A stretch of 64,000 nucleotides of DNA from a virus (IMGVR_UViG_3300045988_182965), one strand, 5' to 3'; counted from the first letter of the stretch, positions 3,183-58,168 are shown. Numbers and translations: made by a program. Notes: generated from the letters alone by a model not told the origin.

Positions 3183-3248
3183 ATAAAAGAGTAACATTTT
3201 TAGGGGGTACATTTTCGTTCCCTAGAAATGTTACTCTTTCTTTTTGAT
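3183..3248 (+). terminator. Rho-independent terminator. About 20-bp near-perfect stem, also containing a GTAACATTTTTAGGG direct repeat.
   Basis: Stem aaaagagtaacatttttaggg ... ccctagaaatgttactcttt followed by CTTTTTG. Confidence 0.7.
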
Positions 3249-3325
3249 TTTATGCGGTACAATATAAATTTCAGCCCTGCGATTCGTATGAGGTACGGAA
3301 TCGAACGGACAACTTTGGTGGTACT

Positions 3326-4603
3326 ATGACGAACGAACAAAAGCTTCTCGTATATCTCTATGGCGTTGATTCTATCCAGCACAAGCAGCTTGCCATTGCT
3401 CTCTCTGACATCCCATATCAATGCGTCACAAAAGCTCTGAGAGCAGCCAAAAAGCACGGGTATGTTGAGGTCTTTATGAGGGATGAATCGCGGTATGTGC
3501 GTATCTCTCCGGACGGTCTGAAATACATCCGAAACACCCAAAAAGACGCTCTGGATGTAGACAAGCGGGCTGCTATGAAGCGACGAATCAAAGGCGAACA
3601 GGGGCGGCTTACTAGGGTGGAAACCACTCTCTGCATGTGCCGGGCGACGGGAATTCAACCTGCCAAGGAAGCTGGCATCAAGCTGATTGATGTTCTTAAT
3701 CCTGAGCAGGATGCGTCCCAATCCTTTATGAGAGACTTCTTCTATGACAAAGGGCTTCTTTTCCTGTCCGATGAAATCTCTGCAACCATCAAGGCGAGCA
3801 GCACGATGGGCGAGGAATACACGCTCGGCCAAAGCCGTCTGGTAGGTATCGTAATCAATCGCACGGGCATTTCTTTTCTTTACTGTACGCTCGATAAGCT
3901 GATGCGATGGGTTGTATCTTACGAACAGCGGCGCGTGAGTGCAGTGATGGAGCTCTTGAAGTCCAGCTCACTTGCAGCAACGGATGAGGACTTCACGACT
4001 GTCTGCAACATGCCGCCCAAGTGTATCGTTATCGGCAAGACCTGTGCTATGGTTCCCAAAATCATTACTGGCGATAAGTACGGCAAAGCAATCGACAGCG
4101 CTGATATCATCAAAGCCCATAACGCAGCAAGGCTCTTGACGCTCGCAAATCTCGAACAGGTCTACAAGTACAGCTATTTCGTTCCTACAAGCTCTATCGG
4201 CGTTGAGCTTCTTACTCGAACGGCAACTTTAACACGGAATGAACTCAATGAAATGATTTCCGTGTGGCTGGATGAAATGGCAGAAAACCATACGATAGTT
4301 AGTGCCGGACGGTATGTGGAAGCTTACATCAATGAACAGCAACACAAAACCATAATGCTACCGGTCATTGAGTTTGAAGAGCTCGAATATCAGAAAAACG
4401 GACGAACGCCTTATCATGTCGTCTGCGAGCGAGGAACGCAAGACGGCATCAGCCGGGCATTAGGAAACAAAGTTCTTGATTTCAAGGATTTCGATAACAT
4501 TACAATGCCAGCGCACAAATATGACGACGACGGAATTCGCCGCGATGGAATAAACCCATTGACGCATAATGGATACAATGAAGAGGAGATGGATGACCAA
4601 TGA
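3326..4603 (+). CDS. Hypothetical protein with a putative N-terminal winged-helix region
   Basis: 425-aa ORF. Preceded by a GCGGTACAAT promoter-like motif at 3246-3263. Confidence 0.45.
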   Translation: MTNEQKLLVYLYGVDSIQHKQLAIALSDIPYQCVTKALRAAKKHGYVEVFMRDESRYVRISPDGLKYIRNTQKDALDVDKRAAMKRRIKGEQGRLTRVETTLCMCRATGIQPAKEAGIKLIDVLNPEQDASQSFMRDFFYDKGLLFLSDEISATIKASSTMGEEYTLGQSRLVGIVINRTGISFLYCTLDKLMRWVVSYEQRRVSAVMELLKSSSLAATDEDFTTVCNMPPKCIVIGKTCAMVPKIITGDKYGKAIDSADIIKAHNAARLLTLANLEQVYKYSYFVPTSSIGVELLTRTATLTRNELNEMISVWLDEMAENHTIVSAGRYVEAYINEQQHKTIMLPVIEFEELEYQKNGRTPYHVVCERGTQDGISRALGNKVLDFKDFDNITMPAHKYDDDGIRRDGINPLTHNGYNEEEMDDQ

Positions 4604-4902
4604 TAGCGATTCGTGTATGTCCAACTTGCAAGCGTAAATTTGAAGCGCGTGTAGGGGAACCCCAAACTTATTGTGAAGAGTGCCTTGAACTCAAGACCAT
4701 GAGTGAATCGTCTGTGTGCTCTTGGTTCTTTGACAACGATGACTTCGATGATGATTTCGATATCCCGGAATCTAAAGAGAATGAAAAGGTGGAGGCACAA
4801 GAGACAAAGCAGAGCAGACAAGTATTTGACTTGATTCCGCCGTACAAGAGAAAGACAAAGCGAATGGACAACGCATTCTTCAAGGAGGCATTAAAGGGTT
4901 GA
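4600..4902 (+). CDS. Small zinc-ribbon protein (CxxC...CxxC) with an acidic tail
   Basis: CPTCKRKF...YCEEC motif. Translationally coupled to the upstream gene by an ATGA overlap. Confidence 0.45.
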   Translation: MIAIRVCPTCKRKFEARVGEPQTYCEECLELKTMSESSVCSWFFDNDDFDDDFDIPESKENEKVEAQETKQSRQVFDLIPPYKRKTKRMDNAFFKEALKG

Positions 4903-5005
4903 CCGAAACTATTGCAACCTCCCGCCGTCTCACCGAGCAATCTAGCAGTACTTTGACTACTAATCGTGAACTTTCATTTAACAAACCGGCTTTCAAATTG
5001 AGAAA

Positions 5006-5027
5006 AAGTGCAATTTATGGTATAATA
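5006..5027 (+). promoter_or_regulatory. Promoter with the element motif GTGCAATTTATGGTATAAT (extended -10)
   Basis: TGgTATAAT preceded by a GTGCGAAT-like box. About 240-nt leader before the CDS at 5263. Confidence 0.5.
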
Positions 5028-5262
5028 CAAATATAGAAAAGAAAGAAATTGTACATACCTCTGACTACAAATTATCCAAATGCAATCCAATCAAAATTCT
5101 TGAATTCGGGAACAGCTGTTCTTCCAGCACTTTCTGGAGTGACGACATAACCAGTTCCAAGACATTTTCAAAGTACAAACAAATCCAAAGTCAAAACCAA
5201 AAAAGCAATCAAAGCACAAAGCACAATGTAGTTAGAGGCCATCTGAATCGGAAGCTTGTCCT

Positions 5263-5931: not shown

Positions 5932-5934
5932 AAT

Positions 5935-13357: not shown

Positions 13358-13684
13358 GTTCTTTCGTTCTCCTTCGTTTGGATAGTTTTTGCACAAATAC
13401 TTCAATGTAGTATTTGTTGTACAACTCCTATTGTACCTGGCTCGCATATTCCGGCAAGCAAACAACCATTACAAATTGGTAATCATTCGTGCAGCTACTG
13501 AAAAAATCGCGAAATTTCTTCGATGACTTCCGGTTGTAGTGTATTTGATTGGACTTTCAAATTCTATTTTAGTCGCACATATTGCAACTTACGGTTGTAT
13601 TTGCTATACTAATAACAACCAATAACAACCGACAAGGCACAAATAACAACTATTAGGTGTTACAGCCGACTGAGGAGGCCAATC

Positions 13685-16270: not shown

Positions 16271-16496
16271 GGGAAATTTTCGGGCGTTTGGAAAAACACC
16301 CCTAGGACTTTGAGCTTTGCTGCACAAAAACAAGCCTCCGCTCTTTGGCGGGGGCTCTTCTTGTATTCTCAAAAACGTTGAATTCAATTTCACTGAATTC
16401 CGATTCAACATTATTTGGCGTGGCTCAGCTTGGCCCGGCAGCACGATGCCATGGCGGTAGAACACAATGATTCTCCAGAACGGGATTCTCGACATC

Positions 16497-16516
16497 CAGT
16501 GCGAATCGCATATAAT
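16497..16516 (+). promoter_or_regulatory. Element promoter motif CAGTGCGAATCGCATATAAT
   Basis: Matches the GTGCGAAT-N-TAYAAT consensus, 40 nt upstream of the CDS at 16555. Confidence 0.5.
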
Positions 16517-16554: not shown

Positions 16555-17280
16555 ATGAAGGTCTTGGTCATTCCAGACTGCCACCTGAAACCCTGGATGT
16601 TTGCGCAGGCATATGCCATCATGAAGAAGGGCATTGCAGACAAGGTCGTCTGCCTTATGGACCTGGCGGATGATTTCGGGGTTCATGACGATGCACAGTA
16701 TCTGGAGACCTATGAAGCCGCAATCACGTTTGCCAGGGAATATCCCGAAACTCTCTGGTGCTACGGAAACCATGACCTGAGCTACATCTGGGGAAAACCG
16801 GAAACCGGATACCATCCGGAAAAAAGAGGGCTGGTGTGTCAAGAAATTAAAAAGTTGACAAATACCTTGCCAAAGAAAAGTCAGCTTGCATATATCCACA
16901 AAATTGACAAAACACTTTTCATGCACGGCGGCCTTGCAAATCTCTTTGTTCAGCTCCGGGTAGCACCACAGAACCGAAAAAATGTTCTCGAGGTTATCAA
17001 AGCTATCAACCAGATGGGCTGTGAGACAATGTGGGCAGCGGACTCTCCCATTTGGTATCGCCCGCAGCTGTCTCCGAATCAGAACGCAAAACGTTTGTAT
17101 CGCGGCGGCAAATATCTGCAAGTGGTGGGGCATACGCCTGTGAAAGAAGTTTACCTGGAAGGTGGAGTGCTTTCCTGTGATACTTTTTCAACCTATCGTG
17201 ACGGAACCCCATACGGGTCACAGGCTTTTTGTATCGTGGATACCATTACTTTGGAGTTTGAGACAGTTAAAGGCGGATGA
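16555..17280 (+). CDS. Calcineurin-like metallophosphoesterase
   Basis: VIPDCH, LMDLADD and GNHD motifs. Confidence 0.65.
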   Translation: MKVLVIPDCHLKPWMFAQAYAIMKKGIADKVVCLMDLADDFGVHDDAQYLETYEAAITFAREYPETLWCYGNHDLSYIWGKPETGYHPEKRGLVCQEIKKLTNTLPKKSQLAYIHKIDKTLFMHGGLANLFVQLRVAPQNRKNVLEVIKAINQMGCETMWAADSPIWYRPQLSPNQNAKRLYRGGKYLQVVGHTPVKEVYLEGGVLSCDTFSTYRDGTPYGSQAFCIVDTITLEFETVKGG

Positions 17281-17495
17281 GTGCCGATAAAACAAGCGTT
17301 GAGAGAAACGGTGCTATATGCTATAATATTTTCAAGTTCAAGAACCACAGCCGATACAATCTCAACGAAGAGCTTGATGCCTGCTTGAAACTGCACAGCA
17401 ATAAAAAGCAAATATCAAATAACAGAAATGCAGCTTAAAGAGAAAGGCTGCCATATAAAATAGCAAGAAACGTTTGCAAAAATAACAATCAGCGC

Positions 17496-17536
17496 GAAAG
17501 GGACGTCCCTTTCCTTACGGAGAAGAACTCCGTAAG
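17496..17536 (+). promoter_or_regulatory. Two tandem perfect hairpins overlapping the RBS of the next gene
   Basis: gaaagggacgtccctttc palindrome, then ccttacggag aaga ctccgtaagg. Confidence 0.45.
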
Positions 17537-17537
17537 G

Positions 17538-18533
17538 ATGGGTTTTGGCTGCTTCCTGCGCTGCGCGGGGGTGGCACATCTGGGCAAACTAATTGACCTG
17601 TATTCTTATCCGGTCAGAACGGCAATGCGGTTTCTGCTGGCAGATAAGACGACAGGTGAAAATATAATCTGGGCAACGAATACTTATGAACGATATGGCG
17701 ATGGTTATCGGCAGGATAATCAAATCACGCCGGAGCTGATTTCCGGGGTATATGCCAATCTTATCCAGCCGCGTATTTTGAAAGCGGAAGAGGAACAGGC
17801 GGCAAGAACTAAATCCAAAGCCGAGGTCTTTACGCCCTCTTGGGTCGTCTGCTATATGAACAATAAATGCGATGACGATTGGTTTGGACGAGAAAACGTA
17901 TTTAATACGTTGAACGGTGAACATTGGGGGCCAACGAAAGAGCCTATCAGTTTTGAAAAAGAATTGGACTGGCAGAGATATGTTGATTCTCGGCGGCTGG
18001 AAATCACCTGCGGCGAGGCCCCTTATCTAGTATCTCGCTATGATGCCGCTACTGGAGAAGAACTTCCGATTGAAAACAGAATAGGGATTCTGGACAGAAA
18101 GCTGCGGGTCGTGAACGAGAACACCGATAATGAGGCTGACTGGCTGAAATGGACGCGGCGGGCATTTGAAAGCACCTATGGGTACGAATATCAGGGTGAC
18201 AACCTGCTGGTTGCCCGCATCAACCTATTGATGACCTTTGTGGACTATATGCAGGAGCGATGGCGGCGGGAGCCGACTGCCAAAGAACTGAACCAGATTG
18301 CCAATGTAATCTGCTGGAATATCTGGCAGATGGATGGCCTAAAAGGGACGATTCCGGGCAAAGAACTGTACATATCAGACGACTACGAGCAGCTATCCCT
18401 GTTTGCAAGTGACTCTGAGCAGGAAACGCTGTTCGACGAGACGGCTAAGCAGAATAAAAAGTACGAATGTAAAATCCGTGATTGGCGTGCAATGCGGACA
18501 ATTACATATAGCAAAATGAAAGGAGAAAAATAG
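17538..18533 (+). CDS. Hypothetical protein upstream of the MTase catalytic gene (contains an EVFTP motif)
   Basis: 331-aa ORF. AEVFTPSWVV resembles MTase motif X, but no motif I follows. Confidence 0.4.
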   Translation: MGFGCFLRCAGVAHLGKLIDLYSYPVRTAMRFLLADKTTGENIIWATNTYERYGDGYRQDNQITPELISGVYANLIQPRILKAEEEQAARTKSKAEVFTPSWVVCYMNNKCDDDWFGRENVFNTLNGEHWGPTKEPISFEKELDWQRYVDSRRLEITCGEAPYLVSRYDAATGEELPIENRIGILDRKLRVVNENTDNEADWLKWTRRAFESTYGYEYQGDNLLVARINLLMTFVDYMQERWRREPTAKELNQIANVICWNIWQMDGLKGTIPGKELYISDDYEQLSLFASDSEQETLFDETAKQNKKYECKIRDWRAMRTITYSKMKGEK

Positions 18534-18537
18534 TGCC

Positions 18538-19575
18538 ATGAAGTTCGATTATGTAACCGGAAATCCGCCGTTCAATACAGAATCGGTTGGCGCAAATGAA
18601 AATGATACGCCATTGTATCATTATTTTTATGACGCAGCGTTTCAAATATCAGATAAAGTGGAACTTATAACACCGGGTCGCTTTCTGTTTAATGCAGGCG
18701 GTACACCGAAAGAGTGGAATGAAAAAATGCTAAATGATGTCCACTTTTCGGTTTTATATTATGAGGGCGATGCATCAAAAGTTTTTGCAGGAAAATCAAT
18801 AAACGGTGGCATTGCTATCGGGTACAGAGATACAACTAAAGTTTTTGAACCTATTGGTATTTTTACCGCGTTCCCTGAGCTCAATAATATACTGCTAAAG
18901 ATAAATCATAAATCAAGTGGTAGCTTCGCAGATATTGTTACTAATAGAGGATTGTATAAGTATTCGAACTTGGCCTATGAAGAACATCCGGAAGAAATGA
19001 AGATGACTGCTGACAAACGTATTGCTCCAAGTGCTTTCGAACGTATGCCTAATATGTTTACAGAAGAAAAACCAATTGATGGAAAAGAGTACATTCACAT
19101 ATTCGGAAATTTGAATAAGCAACGCGTATATCGGTGGCTACGCAAAGATTATATATGTCCAGTTAGTAACCTTGATAAATACAAGGTTTTTATATCAAAG
19201 GCAGATGGTGCGGCGGGTCAAATCGGAAAGCCCATTCCTGCACGAATTATTGGCAAACCAATTGTTATGGGTCCCGGCATTGGGTGTACAGAAACGTACA
19301 TTACAATCGGTGAAGTTGATAGCGAGAGTGAAGCAAATAGTATTGCAAAATACATTATGACAAAATTTGCAAGAACTATGATTGGAGTTCTGAAAGTAAC
19401 TCAAAACTATGCAAAACCAACATGGGAAAAGGTTCCAATGCAAAATTTTACTTCAAACTCCGACATCAACTGGTCAGCCTCTATCTATGACATTGACCAG
19501 CAGCTCTACAAGAAGTACGGTCTTTCCCAGCAGGAAATCGATTTCATCGAATCTCATGTGAAGGAGATGGCATAA
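18538..19575 (+). CDS. N6-adenine DNA methyltransferase, catalytic and target-recognition portion. Lacks N-terminal motifs X and I.
   Basis: Begins MKFDYVTGNPPFN (motif IV NPPF), followed by an ITPGRFLF-type motif. Confidence 0.6.
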   Translation: MKFDYVTGNPPFNTESVGANENDTPLYHYFYDAAFQISDKVELITPGRFLFNAGGTPKEWNEKMLNDVHFSVLYYEGDASKVFAGKSINGGIAIGYRDTTKVFEPIGIFTAFPELNNILLKINHKSSGSFADIVTNRGLYKYSNLAYEEHPEEMKMTADKRIAPSAFERMPNMFTEEKPIDGKEYIHIFGNLNKQRVYRWLRKDYICPVSNLDKYKVFISKADGAAGQIGKPIPARIIGKPIVMGPGIGCTETYITIGEVDSESEANSIAKYIMTKFARTMIGVLKVTQNYAKPTWEKVPMQNFTSNSDINWSASIYDIDQQLYKKYGLSQQEIDFIESHVKEMA

Positions 19576-19576
19576 T

Positions 19577-35548: not shown

Positions 35549-35667
35549 CTCAAAAGCGCGGTTTTGTCCGCGCAGCTGCTCCAAAAGACAGCCTCCACGC
35601 GGCGAGCAGCGGGCAACGGGAGACAGCCCCGGCAAATTGTCTTTGAGACGGAAGGAGAAAGTGCCCT

Positions 35668-37020: not shown

Positions 37021-37148
37021 CCATCCTGCAAAAATATATGCCGTTCATCTTTTTGGGTGGACGGCTTTTTGTTTTGTGAATACAGCGATTCAGTGGCGAA
37101 GCGAGCCGATTTTACCAGCAGTTTGATACTCTGTGGGCAGTTGCACAG

Positions 37149-37168
37149 CCGTGCAAATTGCATACAAT
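37149..37168 (+). promoter_or_regulatory. Element promoter motif CCGTGCAAATTGCATACAAT
   Basis: Consensus match upstream of 37512. Confidence 0.45.
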
Positions 37169-39677: not shown

Positions 39678-39736
39678 TATGCATGGCAGGTTCTTTTCGG
39701 AGCCTGCCTTCTTATTTCGCAAAAATAGTTGCCCAT

Positions 39737-39756
39737 TTGTGCGAATTGCAGACAAT
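39737..39756 (+). promoter_or_regulatory. Element promoter motif TTGTGCGAATTGCAGACAAT
   Basis: Consensus match upstream of 39796. Confidence 0.5.
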
Positions 39757-41276: not shown

Positions 41277-41294
41277 TGGGATGAGGTAAATATC

Positions 41295-42002: not shown

Positions 42003-42149
42003 AAAAGGCGGTAAACAAATGCAAGAAGCGGGAGCCCCGGGTTTGTTGGTTCCAGAACGTCTTTCCACCTGAATTTTACCAGCACTTTGATATTCTGCGG
42101 GTATTGACAAACAGCCAAAAAGGTGCTTAGGTCAAAAGCTCTTGCAAAA

Positions 42150-42169
42150 ACGTGCGATATCCGTACAAT
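42150..42169 (+). promoter_or_regulatory. Element promoter motif ACGTGCGATATCCGTACAAT
   Basis: Consensus match. Confidence 0.45.
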
Positions 42170-42208: not shown

Positions 42209-42817
42209 GTGAGTGAACAGAAAGAAAATGCTCAGCTCGAAGCCTACCGGAAGCTCGTTGAAGATTTCAAGCGTTTCGTCAGTTCTGAAATTCGGGCGGA
42301 GGAGAACAGCTACCGGATTGTGGACATGACTTCCGAAGATGCCGAAATCGATGACCCGAGCGTTCCGGTGACTCAACTGGAGGACGAAAAAGCAGAGAAG
42401 CTTGCCGGTATTTGCATGGACCTGTCCAATGCCACGCTGTGGCTCTACTACAACCGTGACAAATTTGCAAACGTCGAGTTCATGCCCCTGACTGATGAAA
42501 CTCTGAAAGAATACCAGAAGCAAGCTCAGAATGCTCTGAATGAACCGAAGAGCCCTCTGTATCTGAAATCCTGGTATCAGCTCATTGAAATGTTGAGCCA
42601 GGAATGTATCCCGCAGCGCTACGAGGACGACGGTCAGCGATATACAGACGTCTATGTGAACACCTATATGCTCATGTACCTGACCATGACCCGACTCAAG
42701 AACGGCGGAACCTTTACACGCCTTGCAAACGGGCAGGGAAGCGATGCTGTGAAAATCACGACCATCGCAATGTACTACTTCTCCAGCCTTTTGACGGTTC
42801 TCTGCACTGAATATTAA
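42209..42817 (+). CDS. hypothetical protein
   Basis: GTG start with an AAGGGAGA RBS, downstream of the promoter motif. Confidence 0.4.
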   Translation: MSEQKENAQLEAYRKLVEDFKRFVSSEIRAEENSYRIVDMTSEDAEIDDPSVPVTQLEDEKAEKLAGICMDLSNATLWLYYNRDKFANVEFMPLTDETLKEYQKQAQNALNEPKSPLYLKSWYQLIEMLSQECIPQRYEDDGQRYTDVYVNTYMLMYLTMTRLKNGGTFTRLANGQGSDAVKITTIAMYYFSSLLTVLCTEY

Positions 42818-42883
42818 GAAATTTTTTCCCGTGTGAGCAGCGACGCTCACGCGGGAATTTTTTTGTAATTTTCTATTGTCAAT

Positions 42884-42903
42884 CTGTGCGAATTGCGTAC
42901 AAT
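42884..42903 (+). promoter_or_regulatory. Element promoter motif CTGTGCGAATTGCGTACAAT
   Basis: Consensus match. Confidence 0.5.
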
Positions 42904-42991
42904 GAAAAATATAAACCAAAAATATATCTTATCGTTGTCCCGCATGAGTTGTTTGTGCGGGACTTTTTTATTTGCGGAAAGGAAATGCATT

Positions 42992-45444: not shown

Positions 45445-45999
45445 ATGCGTACAAATAAAACTGCAAGCCACATTTACTATGAGCTTGACCACGATATACA
45501 GGAATATGCGAAACGGCTTTTGGCTAAAAAGATTCTGCACGCGGCACGGCAGGACAATGCTGCTTCATTGCCTGATGAAACGGCGAAGAAAATTGCCGAG
45601 ACGGCGGTGTTTCTGACCGAACGCCTCGCGCTTTTGTATGAGCTGAATTCTGGATTCCGAGGCATCCGATTCAGCACTTTCGGAGAACAGCCTGCCGTCT
45701 ATACCACCATGGTCCAGCACAATGCCCCGCTGTATGATGAGCCGATGCTTGGACGGGCCTACAACCTCGCCAACTACCTTACTGCTGATAATGAGGATAT
45801 CAAAGAATCTGCTTTGATGAAGCACAAGGTTTTGGCAGCAATTTATAGTGCCGCTGCATACATGAAAGGGCAGACTCCGGAGCAGGGAAAAATCTCGATT
45901 CAGAACCAGCTATTTGTGTCTACGGCTGTTGAGCTGTTCAGCAGCCTTTTGGAGGCAGCGGCAGAGAAAAAGAACGACAGCAATAAAAGCGCTGCCTGA
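45445..45999 (+). CDS. hypothetical protein
   Basis: 184-aa ORF, tightly coupled to the helicase gene. Confidence 0.4.
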   Translation: MRTNKTASHIYYELDHDIQEYAKRLLAKKILHAARQDNAASLPDETAKKIAETAVFLTERLALLYELNSGFRGIRFSTFGEQPAVYTTMVQHNAPLYDEPMLGRAYNLANYLTADNEDIKESALMKHKVLAAIYSAAAYMKGQTPEQGKISIQNQLFVSTAVELFSSLLEAAAEKKNDSNKSAA

Positions 46000-46021
46000 T
46001 TTGAAAGATTGGAGAATTTGT

Positions 46022-46474
46022 ATGATTCGATTCAGAAAAGATACCCCTCGCTATTGGTTTATGAGCAACTATTACCCTTGCGAATTTGTGATGGATGGGA
46101 TTCGCTACAAGAACGCTGAAGCAGCGTTTCAGAGTCACAAGGTCCCACTGGAAGAGCGCAGACAGTTTGCGGACATGCCACCGGCTTCTGCCAAGCGTTT
46201 TGGCCGTAATGTGGCTATCCCCGCAAACTGGGACAAAACTCGGGACGATGTAATGCGCCGCGTGGTGATGGCCAAGTTCGAGCAGAATGAGGACCTCAAA
46301 CAGCGCCTCCTCGAAACGGGTACGCAGCCTATTGAGGAAGATACGACCAGCTGGCATGACAACTATTGGGGTAACTGCCATTGCCAGAAGTGCCGGAACA
46401 TCCCGAGCCAGAATCGGCTCGGTATCATTCTGATGGAAACCAGGGACAAGCTGAAAAAGCAAACAGGCAAATAA
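46022..46474 (+). CDS. NADAR (DUF1768, YbiA-like) domain protein
   Basis: FMSNYYPCEF...YKNAEAAFQSHK matches the NADAR FSNFY...AEHYFQ pattern. Confidence 0.55.
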   Translation: MIRFRKDTPRYWFMSNYYPCEFVMDGIRYKNAEAAFQSHKVPLEERRQFADMPPASAKRFGRNVAIPANWDKTRDDVMRRVVMAKFEQNEDLKQRLLETGTQPIEEDTTSWHDNYWGNCHCQKCRNIPSQNRLGIILMETRDKLKKQTGK

Positions 46475-46589
46475 TGCTTGCAATGCCTTGCGAGCTCCAT
46501 ATAATTAGAGATGAAATCAAAAAGAATTATCTTTTGCGAAGACTCCGTTGCTGACGGCGTTCTCGTTTTCTTTTGTTCAAACGCAAAAG

Positions 46590-46632
46590 GCTGCCGCCCA
46601 GTAATGGGTAGCAGCCTTATTTTTTTCGTTTG
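46590..46632. terminator. Bidirectional terminator
   Basis: AAAAGGCTGCCGCCCAGTAATGGGTAGCAGCCTTATTTTTTT. Confidence 0.6.
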
Positions 46633-46678
46633 TATCAACCGATATGGCAGCAAATCATCTTGCCGCATTCAGAATGAT

Positions 46679-48565
46679 TCATTGCACGATTTCGCCCAGG
46701 TCATTTGCGTATTTCGGGTCACACATCATGAAGTAGTTGACGGGGCCGTACTCCAGACCGAGCTCCTGCGCATATGCCCTGATAGCTTCCAGAACGTCCT
46801 CTTTCTTGAGATTATACTTGGAATACAGACGAGCAAATTCTTTGTCAGAGACAGAGACGCAAGAGCAATTTTCTGCATCGGTTTCTTTGCTGCCCAGCAT
46901 CCCGTCAAAGATGTCCTGTCCTGCACAGAGAATCGTCTCATTGTTCATCACATAGGCAATGACAGAAGCCTTGCAGTCAAAGTCGCTGTCTTCCACCAAA
47001 AAGTCCTCAGGGTAGCCGTGACGTTCAACAACGTTTTCATAGATGTCCCGGAGCTCGATAGGAGCAGAAGGAGCGGTCAGCGCTGCTTTATGAAGGCGCA
47101 TGAATTCCACAAACTTTTCATCCGAGAGGGTATCGGTATAAAAACCTACACCGGAAACGCGGACTTTCACTTCGCTGGCAAAGTAATCGTCAATTTTGGA
47201 GACGATTTTCTGCTGGACCCGCTTGTATGCTTCCTGAACATTGGAAGCCGTGTAAAATACCGGGAACTTCATGATGTCGATTCCCTCCGGCAGACTCGCG
47301 TCATAGGCCGCATCAATGCCGCCTCGCAGCGCCGGAACCGCATCATGCAGCTCTTTCACAGAAGAAATGTATCCGGTGATGTACAGCTCATCGTTTTTGC
47401 TGTAATGCCCGATAAGTCCCACATAGAGAGTCTGCATCAGCATGCGCTTGAAGCTGAACCAGCAGAGTCGAATAGGAAGAATGACATTTGCGGCCGTACC
47501 TTCCGCACGATAGGTGCCGGGTGCGGAAATCTTTTCCAGCAGAATCTGGTCGTTCTTGTCACCGTATTTTTCCTTGAAAAGAGCTTGAAGAATTTCAGTG
47601 GACGAAAGAGGAGTGGACATTGGAATCGTTTCATTCAAAAAAGAGAGGAATACATCCACGTTGTCTTTCTGCCATGCGTCATCAGACATGCTTGCACGCT
47701 GCATAGAGAGCTTGTCTTTCCTGTCGTCAGGCAAGGGCTCATACCCACAGGCGATACGAAGCTCGTTCTCCGTGACAGCATCCGTTGCGCTTGCGATTTT
47801 CTTGAGGGTGTTTTCGGTCGGCTGAGCTTTTGCGTTGCCATTCACGAGGCTGCTGATATATCCACGAGTCAGCCCCGCTTGAAACGCAAACTTACCCTGT
47901 GTTCGGGTTCCGATGGCTTTTTTGACCAGCGATGCCAGCCTTTGAAAGTCGGGCTCTTTGGGAAAGGTGGCCTCCGTATCCTTATTGCTGTTCTTTTCAA
48001 GTACCGACTTGTCCCAACCGGTGACAAGAGAATACCCAATATCCTTCAAGGATTGATAGGCAACCCCGTTCTGGTCAAGAGCCGGGGAGTATGTACCGCT
48101 GTTATCTTCCAGCTGCTCTACTGCCTCACGCACCATCCTTGCTTCGTTCATCATGATGACGTCCGGGGCTTCAAGCCGGGCAAGACTCTTGTACCGACTA
48201 TTGAGGCGCTCGACTCGTGCGGCCAATGCAGTGATGTCATCAAGTTGGTCCTTCGTTGCATGGGCAGAGATATCTGCACCAAGTTCAAAATGGTTCAGTG
48301 CAGGAATATCCACGCCTTTGCTCTTGGCGAATTCCACAATGGCTTCCGCGCCATAAAAACGCTTCTCATGGGCTGCGACAACTTTCGTTATCGTGTCGGC
48401 CGAGTTGTCCAGCTCAAGCACTTCACCTTTTCCGGCATCCTCGACATAACACCTGGCGTTGGTGAGAAAGCCTTTCAAAAAATCAGCATCCACATCCAGC
48501 TTCTTAGCGATGCCGGGCAGCTGCTTATAGAAAATCACGGGCGTGGCGAGGTTAACAGAAATCAT
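46679..48565 (-). CDS. 628-aa hypothetical protein with a central HTH (XRE-like) segment
   Basis: Minus-strand ORF with protein-like composition. The overlapping + ORF is C/H/R-rich and looks like a shadow frame. GKFAFQAGLTRGYISSLVNG is HTH-like. Confidence 0.5.
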   Translation of the reverse strand: MISVNLATPVIFYKQLPGIAKKLDVDADFLKGFLTNARCYVEDAGKGEVLELDNSADTITKVVAAHEKRFYGAEAIVEFAKSKGVDIPALNHFELGADISAHATKDQLDDITALAARVERLNSRYKSLARLEAPDVIMMNEARMVREAVEQLEDNSGTYSPALDQNGVAYQSLKDIGYSLVTGWDKSVLEKNSNKDTEATFPKEPDFQRLASLVKKAIGTRTQGKFAFQAGLTRGYISSLVNGNAKAQPTENTLKKIASATDAVTENELRIACGYEPLPDDRKDKLSMQRASMSDDAWQKDNVDVFLSFLNETIPMSTPLSSTEILQALFKEKYGDKNDQILLEKISAPGTYRAEGTAANVILPIRLCWFSFKRMLMQTLYVGLIGHYSKNDELYITGYISSVKELHDAVPALRGGIDAAYDASLPEGIDIMKFPVFYTASNVQEAYKRVQQKIVSKIDDYFASEVKVRVSGVGFYTDTLSDEKFVEFMRLHKAALTAPSAPIELRDIYENVVERHGYPEDFLVEDSDFDCKASVIAYVMNNETILCAGQDIFDGMLGSKETDAENCSCVSVSDKEFARLYSKYNLKKEDVLEAIRAYAQELGLEYGPVNYFMMCDPKYANDLGEIVQ

Positions 48566-48798
48566 GGTGTACTCCTTTCAGATATGTCATTAGCTGTACA
48601 ATGCTGTCATCTTCTGTAATTATAATAGCACATCCCGCACCAAAAAGCAAGCATGAATTTACAATAAATGACAAGAAAATACACCAGATGACATATAGGG
48701 CAAAGCGGTTGATTTCCGAGTCTTTGCTACCCCGTGACGGAACGTGCCCTGTGCGTCTTGTCTTTGTCACGGTTTTGCCATAATTTTGCCTTGTGCAT

Positions 48799-48818
48799 CC
48801 GTGCGAATTGAATATGAT
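48799..48818 (+). promoter_or_regulatory. Element promoter motif CCGTGCGAATTGAATATGAT
   Basis: Consensus match upstream of the MTase gene. Confidence 0.45.
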
Positions 48819-48936
48819 GGGAAATATAAGATAAATAAGTGTAAGCCGCAGAGATTATGTTTCTGCGGCTATTTCTTTTGTGGTCCCCATGCGGATTGAG
48901 ATGTCTGCGTGGGGATTTTTTATTGGGAGATATAGA

Positions 48937-49927
48937 CATGGCAAAGAATGAGAATCTGCACAAGGCAAAGGATGCCAAGAACGACGAGTTCTATACGCTG
49001 TTGAGCAGTGTATCCGAAGAACTCAGACACTACAAGCAGCATTTCGCTGGCAAAATCGTGTTTTGCAACTGCGATGACCCGACGTGGTCCGCTTTCTGGC
49101 GATACTTCCATCTGAACTTTTCTGAACTCGGCTTGAAGAAGCTCATTGCAACACACTATGACCGCACTGAGCCTACCTACAAGATGGAATATGAGGGCGG
49201 AGACGACAATGATGTGGAAGTCGGCGTAAAGACTCCGCTCGAAAGCAATGGCGACTTTCGCAGTGAGGAGTGTCTTGCTTTACTGGACGAGTGCGACATC
49301 GTTGTTACAAATCCACCGTTTAGCCTTTTTAGAGAATTCGTCGGGACGTTGATGGAACACGATAAGAAGTTCATTATTTGGGGCAACAACAATGCCATTA
49401 CATACAAAGAGTTCTTTCCACTTTTGAAAGAAAACAAGGTGTGGCTTGGTTATACAGCGAATAAGACGTGTACATTTAGAGTCGCCGAAGGCTATCGCTT
49501 CGACGAAAAACTTACTGCACAATTCAATGACGGGCACAAGTATGGGAAAGTGCCCGCCATTTCTATTTTTACCAACCTCGACATCCAGAAACGTCACGAG
49601 AAGCTGATTCTTTGGAAGCATTTCACTCCAGAAGAATATCCCACATATCTCAATGTGGACAATGCAATCAATGTGGATTCCGTGGACGATATTCCATGTG
49701 ATTATAACGGAATTATCGGAGTTCCTATAACTTTTTTGAGTAAGCATAACCCGGACCAATTCGAAATAATTGGAATTGATAAAGACTTGCGGAAGCCCAT
49801 GTCGAAAATTGCAAATCCAGGGGAATACAATAACTCGGGAACCGCTTTATATTTACCTTACCCTGGCAACGGCTTTAAGTATAAAGCTACATATAGAAGA
49901 CTATTTATTCGCAGAAAGGATATCTAA
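48937..49927 (+). CDS. DNA N6-adenine methyltransferase (Dam-like / phage-type)
   Basis: DEFYT near the N-terminus and VVTNPPF catalytic motif. Confidence 0.55.
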
Positions 49928-49928
49928 T

Positions 49929-50597
49929 ATGAACTTGAAAGATGTACAAAATTTAATTAGCAAACCTTTGAAACCAAATCCGTCCGAATGGGCTATGGAT
50001 GTGGAAGAAGTTCTTACTGACACAAACAATTTGTCAGAAGAAGCAAAGACAGCCGTATATAAAACAAAATTTCATAATGGAGCATTTCAAAATTACACAG
50101 ATGAATTGGTCGCAATGCTCAAGCGTATTGTAAAAAAAGAAATTGCCAATAAGAATAATGATGTGCAAGGAGAAGATGTCGTAATGACAAACAAAAATGT
50201 ATTTATCGTGTATTCGCACCAAAACGAATATATGATGTTCAAAATCAAAGACTTTATCAAAAAGAATCTTGGACTTTGTCCCAAAACACTTGATATCTCC
50301 GAGTATACTGGCAGCGTATGGGATGCCTTTTCTACGAATGTAGCAGACTGTCAAAAGGCAGTGGTTCTCATGTCTGGTGATGATAATGTTACTGATGCTC
50401 ATGGCAATACATATAAACAGGCAAGACCAAATGTTTTTATTGAGCTTGGTTACCTGATTCATAAATGCGGTCTAAAAAACGTCACCATTGTTTATTCTGA
50501 TAATTGCAAAGAACCTTCTGACATTGGAAATCTGGTTTCAGTTCATTATGGCAGTGAAATGTGGACGGAAAGCTTTCGCAAACAGTTAAATAGATAA
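49929..50597 (+). CDS. TIR-like (PF10137-type) nucleotide-binding domain protein
   Basis: VFIVYSH...RPNVFIELGYLIHKCG resembles the TIR-like RpNVmFElGy core. Confidence 0.45.
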   Translation: MNLKDVQNLISKPLKPNPSEWAMDVEEVLTDTNNLSEEAKTAVYKTKFHNGAFQNYTDELVAMLKRIVKKEIANKNNDVQGEDVVMTNKNVFIVYSHQNEYMMFKIKDFIKKNLGLCPKTLDISEYTGSVWDAFSTNVADCQKAVVLMSGDDNVTDAHGNTYKQARPNVFIELGYLIHKCGLKNVTIVYSDNCKEPSDIGNLVSVHYGSEMWTESFRKQLNR

Positions 50598-50607
50598 GGA
50601 GCTAATT

Positions 50608-51744
50608 ATGCAAATTACAGAAACTAAAATCAAGGTATCTGACCTTGTCGAGAACTACAAAGATAATGGTGATGGCGGTGTCTTTGGTTACAATGACCGT
50701 CTTACGATTCGCCCGTCCTTTCAGCGTGAATTCATTTACGGGGAGAAGCAACGTGCAGCCGTTATTGATTCCGTGATGAACGGATTCCCGCTGAACGTCA
50801 TGTACTGGTCCAAGACTGGAGCAAACACCTACGAGGTTCTCGATGGACAGCAACGAACTATTTCTATTGCACAGTATGTCAATAAGGATTTTCCTGTCAA
50901 AATCAACGGCAACGACAAGTTCTTCCAGAACCTGACCGATGAGGAAAAGCAGGCAATTCTGGACTATGAGCTGACGGTCTATGTCTGTGAAGGCACGGAA
51001 GCCGAGAAGCTGGAGTGGTTCAAGCGCATCAACATTGCTGGCGAGGTTCTGACTCCGCAGGAATTGCTGAATGCTACCTATACAGGACCGTGGCTGGCCG
51101 ATGCCAAGAACTACTTCTCGAAGCGCAACTGCATTGCTGCAAAGATGGCTGACGGATATCTGAAGGGCAACCCGATTCGGCAGGAATTGCTGGAAAAAGC
51201 ACTGGCATGGATTGCTGACCGTGACGGTCTGGAATCCGGGCAGATGTACATGGCAGTTCACCAACATGACGAGGATGCCAATGACCTCTGGCTTTACTTC
51301 CAGTCAGTTATCAACTGGGCAAAAATGCTGTTCCCGACTAAGCGGAAGGGGATTACTGATGCGCAGGCGTGGGGTCTGCTCTACAACCAGTACCATACGA
51401 AGCAGTACAACAGCAATGCTTTGGAAGCAGACATCAAGAATCTCGTGATGGATGATGATGTGACAAAGAAGGCAGGCATCATCTCGTTCATCCTCTCTGA
51501 CCGTACTTGGCGCGATGAGAAGCATCTGTCCCTTCGTGCGTTTACGGAATCGCAGAAACTCCGTGCCTATGAACGGCAGGGTCACAAGTGTCCGCTGTGC
51601 GTTGCGAACGGCATCAACACCGAGTATGCCTATGAGGATATGGAAGGTGACCACATCATTCCTTGGAGCAAAGGCGGGCATACCACCGACAACAACCTGC
51701 AGATGCTGTGCAAGAAGTGCAATGCAGCGAAGTCAGATATGTGA
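50608..51744 (+). CDS. DUF262 (ParB-like NTPase/nuclease) plus C-terminal HNH endonuclease, GmrSD-like
   Basis: N-terminal RPSFQREF...DGQQR pattern. C-terminal CPLC...GDHIIPWSKGGHTTDNNLQMLCKKCN HNH motif. Confidence 0.6.
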   Translation: MQITETKIKVSDLVENYKDNGDGGVFGYNDRLTIRPSFQREFIYGEKQRAAVIDSVMNGFPLNVMYWSKTGANTYEVLDGQQRTISIAQYVNKDFPVKINGNDKFFQNLTDEEKQAILDYELTVYVCEGTEAEKLEWFKRINIAGEVLTPQELLNATYTGPWLADAKNYFSKRNCIAAKMADGYLKGNPIRQELLEKALAWIADRDGLESGQMYMAVHQHDEDANDLWLYFQSVINWAKMLFPTKRKGITDAQAWGLLYNQYHTKQYNSNALEADIKNLVMDDDVTKKAGIISFILSDRTWRDEKHLSLRAFTESQKLRAYERQGHKCPLCVANGINTEYAYEDMEGDHIIPWSKGGHTTDNNLQMLCKKCNAAKSDM

Positions 51745-54512: not shown

Positions 54513-54693
54513 TATCTGTGAGACAACACGGATACCATTACCCAAACCAAAACAAATACTAAATGCTCAGCATGAAGAACGACCTACCTGCCACAAACAG
54601 GTGGGTCTTTTTCTTTTTGTGTTGGCAGAAGCCTAAAGAGGTGGGAAGTAACCCTAATGGAATGCCGATTCCAGAACGTCAGAAATTGACGCA

Positions 54694-54713
54694 TCGTGCG
54701 ATTCGCCTAGAAT
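54694..54713 (+). promoter_or_regulatory. Element promoter motif TCGTGCGATTCGCCTAGAAT
   Basis: Consensus-like. Confidence 0.4.
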
Positions 54714-55040: not shown

Positions 55041-55149
55041 CCCAAGGAAAATACAAAATACAAGGAATCGCGAATTGACCACAAGAAATGTTGTATTGAT
55101 GCAGCGAACAAATTATTCGCAATTTGAGATGCCGATAAGATTTGACACC

Positions 55150-55169
55150 TTGTGCGACATGCATACAAT
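55150..55169 (+). promoter_or_regulatory. Element promoter motif TTGTGCGACATGCATACAAT
   Basis: Consensus match. Confidence 0.5.
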
Positions 55170-55356: not shown

Positions 55357-55677
55357 ATGAGCACCAGTATCTTGAAACTTGAAGCCAGCGTGATTCGCCC
55401 CAAAGACGATGACGAGCTCGATGGTCTCGCCGCTTCCATCAGCTTCCCCGTCGAATATGATGACGAGGCGATTGGTAAGGTCCTGGGCGACCAGGACTTG
55501 ATGGCCTATGTCGTCGGAGAGTTGCACGACCTCGTTGTCCGTATGCGTCCCGAATGGCTGGATAACGAAGATACCAGCCTGACCATCAAGGCATTCCTGG
55601 ATGACGCCGAGTGCCAGACGTTTAAGGGCCTTGTTGCAATGAAAGAGGACAGCTACATCTTCGTCATTGAGGGCTAA
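55357..55677 (+). CDS. Acidic hypothetical protein
   Basis: 106-aa ORF. Confidence 0.4.
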   Translation: MSTSILKLEASVIRPKDDDELDGLAASISFPVEYDDEAIGKVLGDQDLMAYVVGELHDLVVRMRPEWLDNEDTSLTIKAFLDDAECQTFKGLVAMKEDSYIFVIEG

Positions 55678-55810
55678 ACGCAACAGTACAAAAGCAAACC
55701 CTGCTCGCAGCAAAATGTGGGTAGGGCTTTTTTGGTTTGCGTAGCTGCATCCTTTTCGTCGTCAAAACCGTAGGTGCCAGGATGCGTAGCTGCCGATGTG
55801 TCTTGACCCG

Positions 55811-55934
55811 CTGTGCGAGTCTCATACAATCAGATTTGTACGAAAGATACCATGCACACAATAGAATTCGCACTAAGCTGCTCAGTGGCCATATGGCTGT
55901 TGGGTAGCTTTTTCTTTTGTGCGAATTGCGTACA
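55811..55934 (+). promoter_or_regulatory. Two copies of the element promoter motif
   Basis: CTGTGCGAGTCTCATACAAT at 55811-55830 and TTGTGCGAATTGCGTACAAT at 55915-55934. Confidence 0.5.
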
Positions 55935-55959
55935 ATAAAAACAAACGGAGGAAATTACC

Positions 55960-56367
55960 ATGAAAAGATTTATTGGAACTGCTTTGGTGTTATGCTGCCT
56001 AGCTTTGCCTTTAGCTGGCTGCAAAGAAGCCATCAGCACCGTGACAAGTACCACAATGTCTGAACTCGAAGATATCCCGAACCAGATATTGGCCACACCG
56101 GAAAGTGCTGAGATGAAACCGGAATACAATTACATTCATTTTCGCTACGACAACATTTGGACCGTATCCGCTCTCGTAAGCTACGAAATCGTGGACAACG
56201 GGCAAAACATCAAGTTTGAAATCAGCGATAGCCGTTACCGAGACAAGGTTTTCTATACCAGCATGTCGAATGTAGAGCTCGTATACCGAGATAATAACAT
56301 TGATTATGGCACGGACTACACCATCTATCCAGGGAATGCTTCGAAATTTGGAAAGGGTGGTAAGTAA
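55960..56367 (+). CDS. Small lipoprotein
   Basis: Signal peptide with lipobox LAGCKE. Confidence 0.5.
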   Translation: MKRFIGTALVLCCLALPLAGCKEAISTVTSTTMSELEDIPNQILATPESAEMKPEYNYIHFRYDNIWTVSALVSYEIVDNGQNIKFEISDSRYRDKVFYTSMSNVELVYRDNNIDYGTDYTIYPGNASKFGKGGK

Positions 56368-56368
56368 G

Positions 56369-56845
56369 ATGGGTATTAAATTTATCGACGGCAATATTTT
56401 TTCACGACTGTCAACGAACAAGCCGACATACATCTGCCAGCAGGTGAATTGCCGTGGCGCGATGGGAGCTGGACTTGCCATGCAAATTCGTAGCCAATGG
56501 CCAGTAGTATATCGGCGCTATCTGGGACTTTGCTATGGCGGCGATGGCAACAAGCTTGGGACCTATCAGGAAATCCTGGTAGAGCCGAAGCTGTACATCG
56601 TTAACCTGTTCGGCCAAAATGGCTATGGCCGGGGCGAAAGACAAACAAATTACGCTGCGCTGGCGACTGCACTGTTCTCATTTTTCCGAGACTGTGCTCA
56701 GAAGAATCAGGATGCAACCATCCGACTGCCATATGGTTTAGGCTGCGGCCTTGCCGGAGGCGACTGGGACACGGTTCTCGCCATCATCAACGATGCAGCA
56801 AAAGCCTGGAATCTGAATGTTGAGATTTGGAAACTCCAGAAATAA
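56369..56845 (+). CDS. Macro domain (ADP-ribose binding/hydrolase) protein
   Basis: ICQQVNCRGAMGAGLA glycine-rich ADP-ribose-binding loop. About 160 aa. Confidence 0.55.
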   Translation: MGIKFIDGNIFSRLSTNKPTYICQQVNCRGAMGAGLAMQIRSQWPVVYRRYLGLCYGGDGNKLGTYQEILVEPKLYIVNLFGQNGYGRGERQTNYAALATALFSFFRDCAQKNQDATIRLPYGLGCGLAGGDWDTVLAIINDAAKAWNLNVEIWKLQK

Positions 56846-56854
56846 TAGCAATAA

Positions 56855-56900
56855 GACCTTTACCGAAATTCGGTAAGGGTCTTTCTTTTTTGTGGGGGAC
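56855..56900 (+). terminator. Rho-independent terminator
   Basis: aagacctttaccgaaattcggtaagggtctt followed by TCTTTTTTG. Confidence 0.65.
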
Positions 56901-57003
56901 GCAAATATGTACAATTTGCAAACAAATAGCACCCACTGTTGCTGGAAAAGCGCGATAGTGGGATAATATTAGTAAAGAAACAACAACATCATCAGTAAAG
57001 TAA

Positions 57004-58023
57004 GTGAAAAAGCCTATGACAAACGCAGAACTAAAAGCAATCGTCCAGCGCGAGGAATACGATTTCCTGCGCACCAACAAACACTTGGGGAGCAACATTT
57101 TATTCCTAACGCTTAGCGGCAGTCATGCCTACGGAACCAACGTTGAAGGCTCTGACATCGATATCCGTGGCGTGGCAGGCTCGCCTGAAATTTTGGGATT
57201 CAATCATTTTGAGCAGGCAATCGATAACCAAACGGATACCGTCATCTATGCGGTCAACAAATTCGTCAGCTTGCTTGCGCAGGGTAATCCCAACATTATC
57301 GAACTTCTTGGCAATGACCCGGAGTTGTATGTGAACATGACGCCGGAAGGCCAAATGCTGCTTGACAATCGGACACTGTTCTTGACGCGGCGTATTGCCT
57401 ACAGCTACGGCGGCTTTGCAAACGACCAGCTCAGACGCCTGCAGATGGGCCTTCTTCGAAACGGAACCTCGCCGGAACCGCTCAAAAACAGATTCGAGAA
57501 GAGGAGCCTGGAACGGTCAATTGTCGGATGGGGCAAGGATGATATTTTCGAAATCTCCATCAGTGAGGATACAGATGAAGAAGGCAAACATCCGCTCCTG
57601 ATTTCTGGCAGCTTGAACGATTATCCAGTCACCTCTCTAAAGTCGCTGCTAAAGAGTCTGACTACGACCATCGACCAGTATGAGCAGCCGCAGCATCCGA
57701 AAGCACAAAAAGATGCTGCCCACATCAACAAACACGCGATGCACATTGTGCGGTTGTACTACACGGCGTTCGATATTCTGGAAAAAGGCGAGATTATCAC
57801 TCACCGAGACAAGGAACGCGAGGAACTGTTGGCGATTCGCAACGGCAAGTACCTGCGTGAAGACGGGTCGTACGCACCCGAATTCTTTGAGTTTGTTGAT
57901 GCGCTTGAAAAGAGATTTCAGGATGATGTATGGAAGACTGCACTTCCTGCGAAACCCGACTTTGGGAAGATTGAGGAACTTCTGGTGGAAATCAACAAGT
58001 CATATTTGCGGCGTATCGTGTGA
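57004..58023 (+). CDS. Pol-beta superfamily nucleotidyltransferase
   Basis: LSGSHAYGTNVEGSDIDIRGV fits GS-x(9-13)-DxD. Confidence 0.5.
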   Translation: MKKPMTNAELKAIVQREEYDFLRTNKHLGSNILFLTLSGSHAYGTNVEGSDIDIRGVAGSPEILGFNHFEQAIDNQTDTVIYAVNKFVSLLAQGNPNIIELLGNDPELYVNMTPEGQMLLDNRTLFLTRRIAYSYGGFANDQLRRLQMGLLRNGTSPEPLKNRFEKRSLERSIVGWGKDDIFEISISEDTDEEGKHPLLISGSLNDYPVTSLKSLLKSLTTTIDQYEQPQHPKAQKDAAHINKHAMHIVRLYYTAFDILEKGEIITHRDKEREELLAIRNGKYLREDGSYAPEFFEFVDALEKRFQDDVWKTALPAKPDFGKIEELLVEINKSYLRRIV

Positions 58024-58148
58024 AGCGGAACACCAACGACAACAACCATCAAGGCTGTACAAGATTATGCGCTCATTCGCAAGTTGCGGGTGGGCGTTCT
58101 TTTTTTGCCCAAAAAACAAAAATAGACATAGTAAAAAGCCTTGCACAT

Positions 58149-58168
58149 CTGTGCGAATCAGATATAAT
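58149..58168 (+). promoter_or_regulatory. Element promoter motif CTGTGCGAATCAGATATAAT
   Basis: Consensus match. Confidence 0.5.

Follow-up and report, generated by a model that had tools for sequence, protein, structure and literature searches.

A spacer box recurs in predicted primary-sigma promoters across a family of very large conjugative elements from gut Clostridia

What kind of promoter is repeated throughout a large mobile element, and what reads it? The question was raised by the 64,000-nucleotide (nt) stretch IMGVR_UViG_3300045988_182965 (hereafter the window, meaning this whole stretch), in which a sequence-only reading had listed 17 positions where a short box abuts a TACAAT hexamer directly upstream of rightward operons. 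That reading held that the box adjoins the −10-like hexamer and does not lie at the distance of a canonical −35 element, and proposed that an alternative sigma factor or dedicated activator, encoded by the element, defined a co-regulated regulon of cargo operons. The window is part of a family of very large conjugative elements from uncultured human-gut Clostridia. Our analysis indicates that the box lies within the spacer of a σA/σ70-type promoter, the −35 element of which has not been replaced, and that the whole element is probably under one regulator.

A discrete class of promoters in the window

The motif occurs far beyond chance. The 8-mer GTGCGAAT was found 13 times in the window against 2.7 expected, a count reached by none of 100 shuffled sequences, and the 20-mer TTGTGCGAATNNNNNACAAT, with up to two mismatches, was found nine times against 0.28 expected, always on the + strand. 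A position-weight-matrix scan of the window returned 16 sites at 23.8-37 bits, scores that are inflated because the matrix was derived from the same sites, and none at 10-23 bits; as this interval is empty, the motif constitutes a discrete class. Fifteen of the 16 sites are on the + strand, the sole minus-strand copy being at 13430-13457. All 16 are intergenic and have the same orientation as the gene or leader 3′ of each, in agreement with the earlier view that the signatures lie directly upstream of co-oriented transcription units.

The consensus, cTTGc-N6-yGTGCGAat-tgcr-TAcAAT, spans 28 bp and comprises a −35 element (TTGc), a 16-bp spacer and a −10 element (TAcAAT), with the box (G/T)TGCGA(AT) at about −24 to −17, inside the spacer. 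The same hexamers (TTGnnn-16-TAnAAT) were found at the same coordinates by an independent σ70 scanner, for example TTGACA-16-TACAAT at 55142-55169, and also at 46478-46505, 42876-42903, 42142-42169 and 32967-32994. The sequence elements that mark a primary-sigma promoter were present (a −35 element, a spacer of 16-18 bp and a −10 element with A2 and T6), the spacer being invariably 16 bp. The box does not take the place of the −35 element, because TTG(c) is 92-99% conserved at the 16-bp spacing, and the presence of this canonical −35 element, together with a −10 element bearing the σ70 invariants A-11 and T-7, argues against the alternative sigma factor or dedicated activator that had been proposed. 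TTG was located exactly 8 nt 5′ of TGCGA (TTG-N8-TGCGA) in 185 contexts against 17-44 at other gaps, and the matrix-independent pattern TGCG[AG]-N6-TAnAAT was found in 127 unique contexts of family DNA, no other gap giving more than 7, indicating that the register of the box is rigid. The distance from box to hexamer, given earlier as N4-6, is fixed at N4.

Conservation was assessed in 85 promoters whose 40 nt of downstream sequence are mutually unrelated. In this set TTG was 93-98% conserved, the T, G, C and G of TGCG were 94-100% conserved (97-100% for T, C and G), and A2 and T6 of the −10 element were each 99% conserved, while spacer positions 6-10 were random. Likewise, among 136 unique contexts, A2 of TAcAAT was present in 134 and T6 in all 136. 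Because specific bases have been kept while the intervening spacer has been randomised, these data point to selection on those bases and not to recent duplication. A pyrimidine/purine pair 8 nt past the −10 hexamer fits a likely transcription start. The conservation is confined to about 30 bp, and the stretch 5′ of the promoter is T-rich in the sequence logo. The box is essentially asymmetric: complementary pairs at the best dyad centre amounted to only 0.46, where the background is about 0.25, and a direct repeat at offset 7 (7 bp) scored 0.47, both weak values. Outside promoters, k-mers of the box occur at the expected frequency. One promoter family, of the type found at 55909, lacks the −35 element and has kept the box and the −10 element.

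The motif promoters of the window, with the units that follow them, are listed below.

13430-13457, − strand: motif promoter CTTGCC-N-ATGCGAGC-N-TACAAT, 23.8 bits, 5′ of an RHS-repeat lipoprotein gene (RHS_repeat)
16489-16516, + strand: motif promoter with −35 TCGACA, box GTGCGAAT and −10 TATAAT; the operon that follows encodes a metallophosphoesterase, an Eco57I-like methyltransferase (MTase) and a T5orf172/ResIII helicase
30906-30933, + strand: motif promoter of a non-coding leader or small RNA of about 125 nt, ending at the hairpin-terminator 31037-31063
31073-31100, + strand: motif promoter of the flotillin/SPFH gene 31194-32837
32967-32994, + strand: motif promoter TTGCTA-16-GATAAT of an operon for a membrane protein and a VWA-domain protein
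37141-37168, + strand: motif promoter with box GTGCAAAT and a leader of about 340 nt, then the PLD/NgoFVII-like nuclease gene 37512-39677
39729-39756, + strand: motif promoter of the three-gene operon 39796-42002; its core, 39738-39756, is the commonest mosaic breakpoint among related elements
42142-42169, + strand: motif promoter with the variant box GTGCGATA; conserved 202-aa protein, 42209-42817
42876-42903, + strand: motif promoter with leader terminator 42937-42963, then genes for a 65-aa membrane protein and a ResIII helicase
46478-46505, + strand: motif promoter, variant CTTGCGAG, TTGCAA-16-TATAAT, with leader hairpin-terminator 46587-46618
48791-48818, + strand: motif promoter with tandem leader terminators 48844-48870 and 48882-48917, then genes for an EcoRI-like MTase, CAP12/TIR and GmrSD-HNH
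54686-54713, + strand: motif promoter TTGACG-16-TAGAAT with box GTGCGATT; open reading frame (ORF) for a 66-aa Cys-rich product
55142-55169, + strand: motif promoter TTGACA-16-TACAAT with box GTGCGACA; acidic 106-aa protein, 55357-55677
55803-55830, + strand: motif promoter of a conserved small RNA of about 79 nt (55836-55914) ending at terminator 55875-55910
55909-55936, + strand: motif promoter of the lipoprotein gene 55960-56367; the T-tail of the preceding terminator stands in place of the −35 element, and box and −10 are perfect
58141-58168, + strand: motif promoter with leader hairpin 58191-58227, then the UvrD-like helicase gene 58248-60974

Fourteen of the 17 positions listed by the sequence-only reading belong to this class (16497, 30914, 31081, 32975, 37149, 39737, 42150, 42884, 48799, 54694, 55150, 55811, 55915, which is really 55917, and 58149). 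The other three (3246, 5008 and 56898) possess just a TAcAAT- or TATAAT-like hexamer, have no box in register and score below 8 bits. Two members, 46478-46505 (+) and 13430-13457 (−), had been overlooked, and the copy at 42884 begins with C, not with T as had been written. Among the operons named as carrying the motif, this was borne out for the flotillin, MTase/TIR and UvrD-like operons, and not for the thioredoxin-like and nucleotidyltransferase operons, the sites of which are non-members; for the operon assigned a macro domain, Pfam recovered no such domain.

Downstream of the promoter at 46478-46505, two ORFs on opposite strands overlap nearly fully, one of 702 aa (46511-48619, +) and one of 628 aa (46679-48565, −). 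The 702-aa ORF has no Pfam match and, as listed, begins at the predicted transcription start and spans the terminator hairpin; its real start is probably near 46643.

The element family, its transcripts and its mosaicism

The window begins inside the gene for a VirB4-like ATPase of a type IV secretion system (T4SS) and continues with about 60 genes in a shared orientation, many of which belong to the defence or anti-defence type. Domains recognised by Pfam include Eco57I-like and EcoRI-like methylases, T5orf172/ResIII, ResIII and UvrD-like helicases, a PLD/NgoFVII-like nuclease, CAP12-type TIR, GmrSD-HNH, NADAR, a DinB-like polymerase, flotillin, VWA and RHS lipoproteins. The restriction-modification (R-M) methylases, CAP12-type TIR, GmrSD-HNH, PLD nuclease and helicases are defence-type cargo, and the NADAR domain and a Lactamase_B protein with a faint match to the Anti-Pycsar protein Apyc1 are of anti-defence type; this mixed cargo runs in one orientation (window 45914-46474, 48923-51744, 37512-39677 and 16555-22873, and L115:14068-15228 in a related locus). 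The ribosome-binding sites are of the Firmicute type, and the closest annotated VirB4 proteins, at 43% identity, are encoded by Subdoligranulum and Vescimonas replicons. No megablast match for 15 kb of the window was found in plasmid and phage collections. Contigs of the same kind could be retrieved from gut metagenomes.

We walked upstream of the window in four steps through IMG/VR contigs, via UViG_3300045988_182459 (222 kb), and reached a T4SS operon encoding a pilin, a 2095-aa surface protein, an M23 peptidase, VirD4 and VirB4. Ahead of it are genes for a RecD2-like helicase, a DUF2325 protein, a YqaJ-like exonuclease, a primase-like protein and a signal peptidase, as well as a SecY-like protein and a RecG-like helicase that were assigned by eye. 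The element is roughly 200 kb in size. At the upstream end of the replication/recombination block of a divergent relative, about 1.9 kb (L179:1-1890) holds no plausible ORFs and could be an origin or an element boundary. This T4SS-bearing family is listed as viral in IMG/VR (contigs L122-L157); the roughly 50 kb that we read 5′ of the window showed no structural genes of phages.

The motif is not restricted to cargo operons, as had been supposed. It is located 5′ of the T4SS operon (variant TTTGCGAGGTGCAGATAAT) and of the helicase, DUF2325, recombinase and primase units, with no copy inside the T4SS operon of about 25 kb. As judged from its positions, the promoter heads essentially every transcription unit, including those for cargo, surface proteins, small RNAs, replication and recombination, and the T4SS.

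The exact 19-mer of the motif had no match in 185,579 GTDB species genomes and was present in 69 human-gut metagenome loci, which together hold 218 matrix sites in 136 unique contexts of 60 nt; within any one locus, nearly all sites point the same way. In IMG/VR it was carried by 36 contigs of 37-389 kb, with 120 sites in 277 kb. Gut metagenomes and IMG/VR together gave more than 200 unique contexts for the family. Relatives whose proteins are just 71-79% identical have kept the motif, whereas elements with 40-43% identical VirD4 or VirB4 have no copy, and their promoter-like sites are ordinary (TTGACn-17-(TG)nTATAAT). The motif is also absent from Vescimonas pMM35_02, the closest annotated T4SS relative. 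A looser 17-base pattern matched species genomes 38 times, mostly by chance or at ordinary chromosomal promoters such as those of leuS (Faecalimonas) and mscL (Lachnospiraceae), which have a TGn extended −10. Only one Clostridiales metagenome-assembled genome (MAG), HRGM_Genome_2451, had multi-site loci resembling the element. Because the species-genome matches are mostly chance or ordinary and the 40-43% relatives lack the box, we rejected the possibility that it is a general host promoter feature and regard it as element-specific. An exact copy of the 19-mer TGTGCGAATCGCGTACAAT, preceded by TTTG, occurs once in each of two unrelated MAG contigs of 57-59% G+C (L105:2242-2269 and L074:7088-7115), which bear the labels Chloroflexia and uncultured bacterium.

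Every cassette ends in a terminator, and terminators precede most promoters (for example 39685-39708, 42826-42857 and 37040-37065), so that the units are insulated. Between seven of the window promoters and their genes lies a short leader containing a hairpin-terminator, and the hairpins detected in leaders lie at 31037-31063, 42937-42963, 46587-46618, 48844-48870, 48882-48917, 55875-55910 and 58191-58227. In the family, 72 of the 159 unique promoters (45%) had a terminator-like hairpin within 160 nt of the start, compared with 27% for random windows on the same strand, a 1.7-fold enrichment obtained with a crude detector; 59 of the 72 hairpins precede the first start codon linked to a Shine-Dalgarno sequence. 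These leader terminators could reflect attenuation, antitermination or separate small RNAs. Some motif promoters are predicted to give rise to a family of RNAs, about 80-95 nt long, with the form 5′ TGTACGAnAGATACCA ... ATTCACA ... strong terminator, of which there are one copy in the window (55836-55914, +) and 15 variants elsewhere (L115:13971, L115:15289, L051, L044, L020, L047, L030, L056 and others). In the window copy, the ATTCACA position is occupied by ATTCGCAC, the reverse complement of the box. The small RNA matched no Rfam family, and covariation supported the terminator hairpin alone. A related leader, 5′ TTGTAC...ATAC, opens the transcripts predicted from 30906-30933 and 13430-13457. 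Elsewhere in the window, an HDV-like self-cleaving ribozyme is located at 35575-35644 (+), flanked on one side by the VWA-domain gene and on the other by a run of four small ORFs that Pfam does not match; it scored 56.8 bits with Rfam family RF02682 (HDV-F-prausnitzii), the gathering score of which is 44.

Compared with the window, related elements are mosaics, with identities of 85-99%. Breakpoints occur repeatedly inside promoter cores (39738, 12 times; 39756, five times; also 46475, 48779 and 58140), and many others are found outside them (43180, 43315, 45227, 45300 and 55336). Some loci have, between two identical 18-bp copies of the core, GTGCGAATTGCAGACAAT, a 1.2-kb cassette for a Mor-family protein of 124 aa that contains two helix-turn-helix (HTH) motifs; this cassette is optional, does not occur in the window and has its Mor gene under a motif promoter (loci with mosaic boundaries and the Mor cassette are L008, L031, L041, L014, L018 and L055). 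The arrangement at 39729-39756 in the window corresponds to the product of deleting the Mor cassette between the two cores, which indicates that the promoters do recombine with one another.

What may read the box

Since the −35 and −10 elements are of the primary-sigma type, the host polymerase should recognise the motif promoters. An asymmetric box that does not vary, keeps a rigid position and is specific to the element should have a trans-acting partner that the element itself encodes. We favour, tentatively and at slightly less than an even chance, the view that the box in these host-type promoters is a docking site for one element-encoded factor acting as a repressor. Host RNA polymerase and the primary sigma factor would initiate at the motif promoters, and a single DNA-binding factor encoded by the element would dock on the box and govern all units jointly. 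A global repressor bound there would occlude the spacer and the −10 element and so exclude polymerase. Upon entry into a naive cell, the element would undergo a burst of expression suited to its anti-defence cargo, and once it was established all units would be damped. Promoters ready for the host polymerase suit cargo of the anti-defence type, such as NADAR and the Apyc1-like gene. Like the operators of repressor regulons, the motif is repeated, 16 times in the window and in over 200 unique contexts across the family. The earlier idea of a co-regulated set stands to this extent, that units sharing the motif promoter are very probably under common control.

Several observations weigh against a repressor. 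We searched with Pfam about 100 window and backbone proteins and 124 cargo proteins of related loci, followed the upstream walk and made two PDB sequence searches. In about 110 kb of an element that is larger than this, the Pfam and PDB searches detected no sigma factor, no repressor of the HTH or ribbon-helix-helix (RHH) type and no Q-like protein, although small regulators can escape Pfam; the sigma or activator gene expected from the sequence-only reading was likewise not found there by Pfam. The sole clear DNA-binding protein was that of the Mor-family cassette, which is optional and missing from the window. The asymmetry of the box (dyad 0.46, direct repeat 0.47) makes it weak as a classical dimeric operator, and its fixed register suggests a factor that contacts RNA polymerase, of which such placement is more typical than of simple steric repressors. 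Moreover, silencing of every unit, R-M genes included, would have to be partial.

The main alternative to a repressor, though a rather unlikely one, is processive antitermination, in which the box would be the loading site for an element-encoded antiterminator that reads through leader and inter-cassette terminators. The precedents are Q of lambdoid phages and AlpA of Pseudomonas aeruginosa, whose binding elements (QBE and ABE) are asymmetric, short and located between −35 and −10 in σ70 promoters that are otherwise normal and have an intrinsic terminator downstream (PMC9371919). The box described here is likewise a short asymmetric element, embedded in rigid register in the spacer of a primary-sigma promoter, and putative intrinsic terminators follow many of its promoters; the excess of hairpins within 160 nt, the seven window promoters with leader hairpins, and the co-orientation of all genes in cassettes that each end in a terminator are also in keeping with such a mechanism. 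However, the Q and AlpA systems operate at just one or two promoters and depend on a pause element that resembles a −10 hexamer and is located at about +1 to +6 (PMC9371919), whereas no such element is conserved early in these transcripts, the best candidate, TAnnnT at +2, being present in 19 of 85. Leader terminators are missing from over half of the promoters, the hairpin enrichment is modest and comes from a crude detector, and each cassette has its own promoter, which would be needless in a processive system. The host is Gram-positive, and Pfam detected no Q- or AlpA-like protein, though such families share no sequence similarity. A broader form of this idea, which we consider unlikely, is that the box loads a new RNA polymerase-riding factor encoded by the element, either a Gram-positive analogue of Q and AlpA or an unprecedented partner that reads the spacer, which would run all units, dozens of exchangeable cassettes of defence and anti-defence type and the small RNAs included, with the core doubling as a crossover point.

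It is quite unlikely that the box is read by an alternative sigma factor or activator that the element encodes. P1 late promoters are Lpa-dependent and have an element centred near −22, and T4 middle promoters have a MotA box (with MotA/AsiA as the factors); in both, as here, a box close 5′ of a normal −10 element is repeated at co-regulated promoters. The role of Lpa at P1 late promoters has been described (PMC8198154). The box centre at about −20.5 and the rigid register resemble phage promoters that depend on an activator or appropriator, and the motif departs consistently from the consensus of the box-less relatives, with a 16-bp instead of a 17-bp spacer, TAcAAT, TTGC and no TGn. The promoter family of the 55909 type retains box and −10 without a −35 element, and some elements carry the Mor-family activator cassette. 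On the other side, promoters that depend on an activator normally lose the −35 element, as those of P1 and T4 have, whereas TTG is conserved here at 92-99% and the −10 element is of the primary-sigma type. Neither a sigma factor nor an activator was found in the part of the backbone that was read, the optional Mor gene is itself motif-driven, and dependence on a factor made by the element would delay anti-defence expression after transfer. The position-specific conservation also makes it less likely that the core is a factor-free module or a recombination site. A portable promoter module without any trans-acting factor, spread by duplication and recombination and kept uniform by gene conversion or by direct contact of polymerase with the box bases, is improbable. 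The mosaic breakpoints inside the core, the deletion of the Mor cassette between identical cores and the expected frequency of box k-mers outside promoters, which shows no avoidance of titration, are as such a module would have them; but conversion would homogenise whole tracts, whereas the positions between the blocks are randomised and TGCG is invariant, and the relatives and other Clostridia have no box. To our knowledge, no base-specific contact of polymerase covers −24 to −19. It is very improbable that the core is primarily an integron-like site-specific recombination site for the capture or exchange of cassettes, with its promoter role secondary. Cassette boundaries do coincide with the core, and an optional cassette lies between two copies of it, but many breakpoints are elsewhere, the DNA examined has no integrase or recombinase gene beside the array, there is little dyad symmetry, and conservation falls at precisely the positions that make up a promoter; 18-bp direct repeats can undergo deletion without a dedicated enzyme.

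Other candidates were rejected. A spacer operator of the MerR type needs a palindrome and a spacer of 19-20 bp, and here the spacer is 16 bp at all sites and the dyad is weak. Comparison by hand with the consensus sequences for σ54, σH/ComX, σE/K, Spo0A, CcpA, Rex, LexA, TnrA, PlcR and the phi105 operator gave no match in register, the only half-element matches being CGAAT of σH/ComX and CATACAAT of σE. Promoters of single-stranded leading regions (Frpo/ssi) do not fit, since they require a long imperfect hairpin, and here conservation covers only about 30 bp and there is no flanking inverted repeat. Avoidance of the box as a methylation or restriction target is contradicted by the expected frequency of its k-mers outside promoters.

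Related circuits and implications

Promoter-operator systems that extend over a whole mobile element are already known (RK2, P1 and p576). KorA and KorB of RK2, ArdK of IncN plasmids with its CUP repeats and C1 of P1 form global repressor circuits, and the damping logic of the kor and C1 systems is that envisaged here for a repressor. As in the present family, one type of operator is found at a fixed place in many promoters across a large element, and the C1 operators are asymmetric and dispersed; by contrast, the sequences, proteins and hosts are unrelated, and the KorA operators are palindromes over the −10 element. In the Bacillus plasmid p576, EGeRS2 promoters and the RHH repressor Reg form an establishment regulon, for which the logic of an initial burst followed by damping has been shown (PMC8708921). 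Like the element described here, p576 is a Gram-positive conjugative element in which a repeated σA-promoter sequence precedes variable, mosaic anti-restriction/establishment operons and thereby defines a regulon (PMC8708921). It differs in that its operator is a dual heptamer, TTATCCCnnTTATCCC, just 5′ of the −35 element and present in four copies, and in that the repressor gene has been identified and is itself preceded by a copy (PMC8708921), whereas the present family has a single asymmetric box in the spacer and dozens of copies, including those at backbone and T4SS promoters. Full-text literature searches for the box sequence returned unrelated primers only. As far as we could find, the literature describes no such system from gut Clostridia, none in which the spacer holds a rigid asymmetric box and none that covers the whole of a very large Gram-positive gut element.

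The motif provides a sequence tag for nearly every transcription start of an abundant family of uncultured conjugative elements from the gut. With it, operons and cassettes can be marked off in metagenomic contigs and small RNAs and leaders that lack annotation can be spotted; it also predicts a single master regulator. If that regulator is a repressor, the family would offer a natural model for the burst of anti-defence expression on entry into a new cell; if it is instead a factor that rides on polymerase, control of the Q/AlpA type would be extended to Gram-positive conjugative elements.

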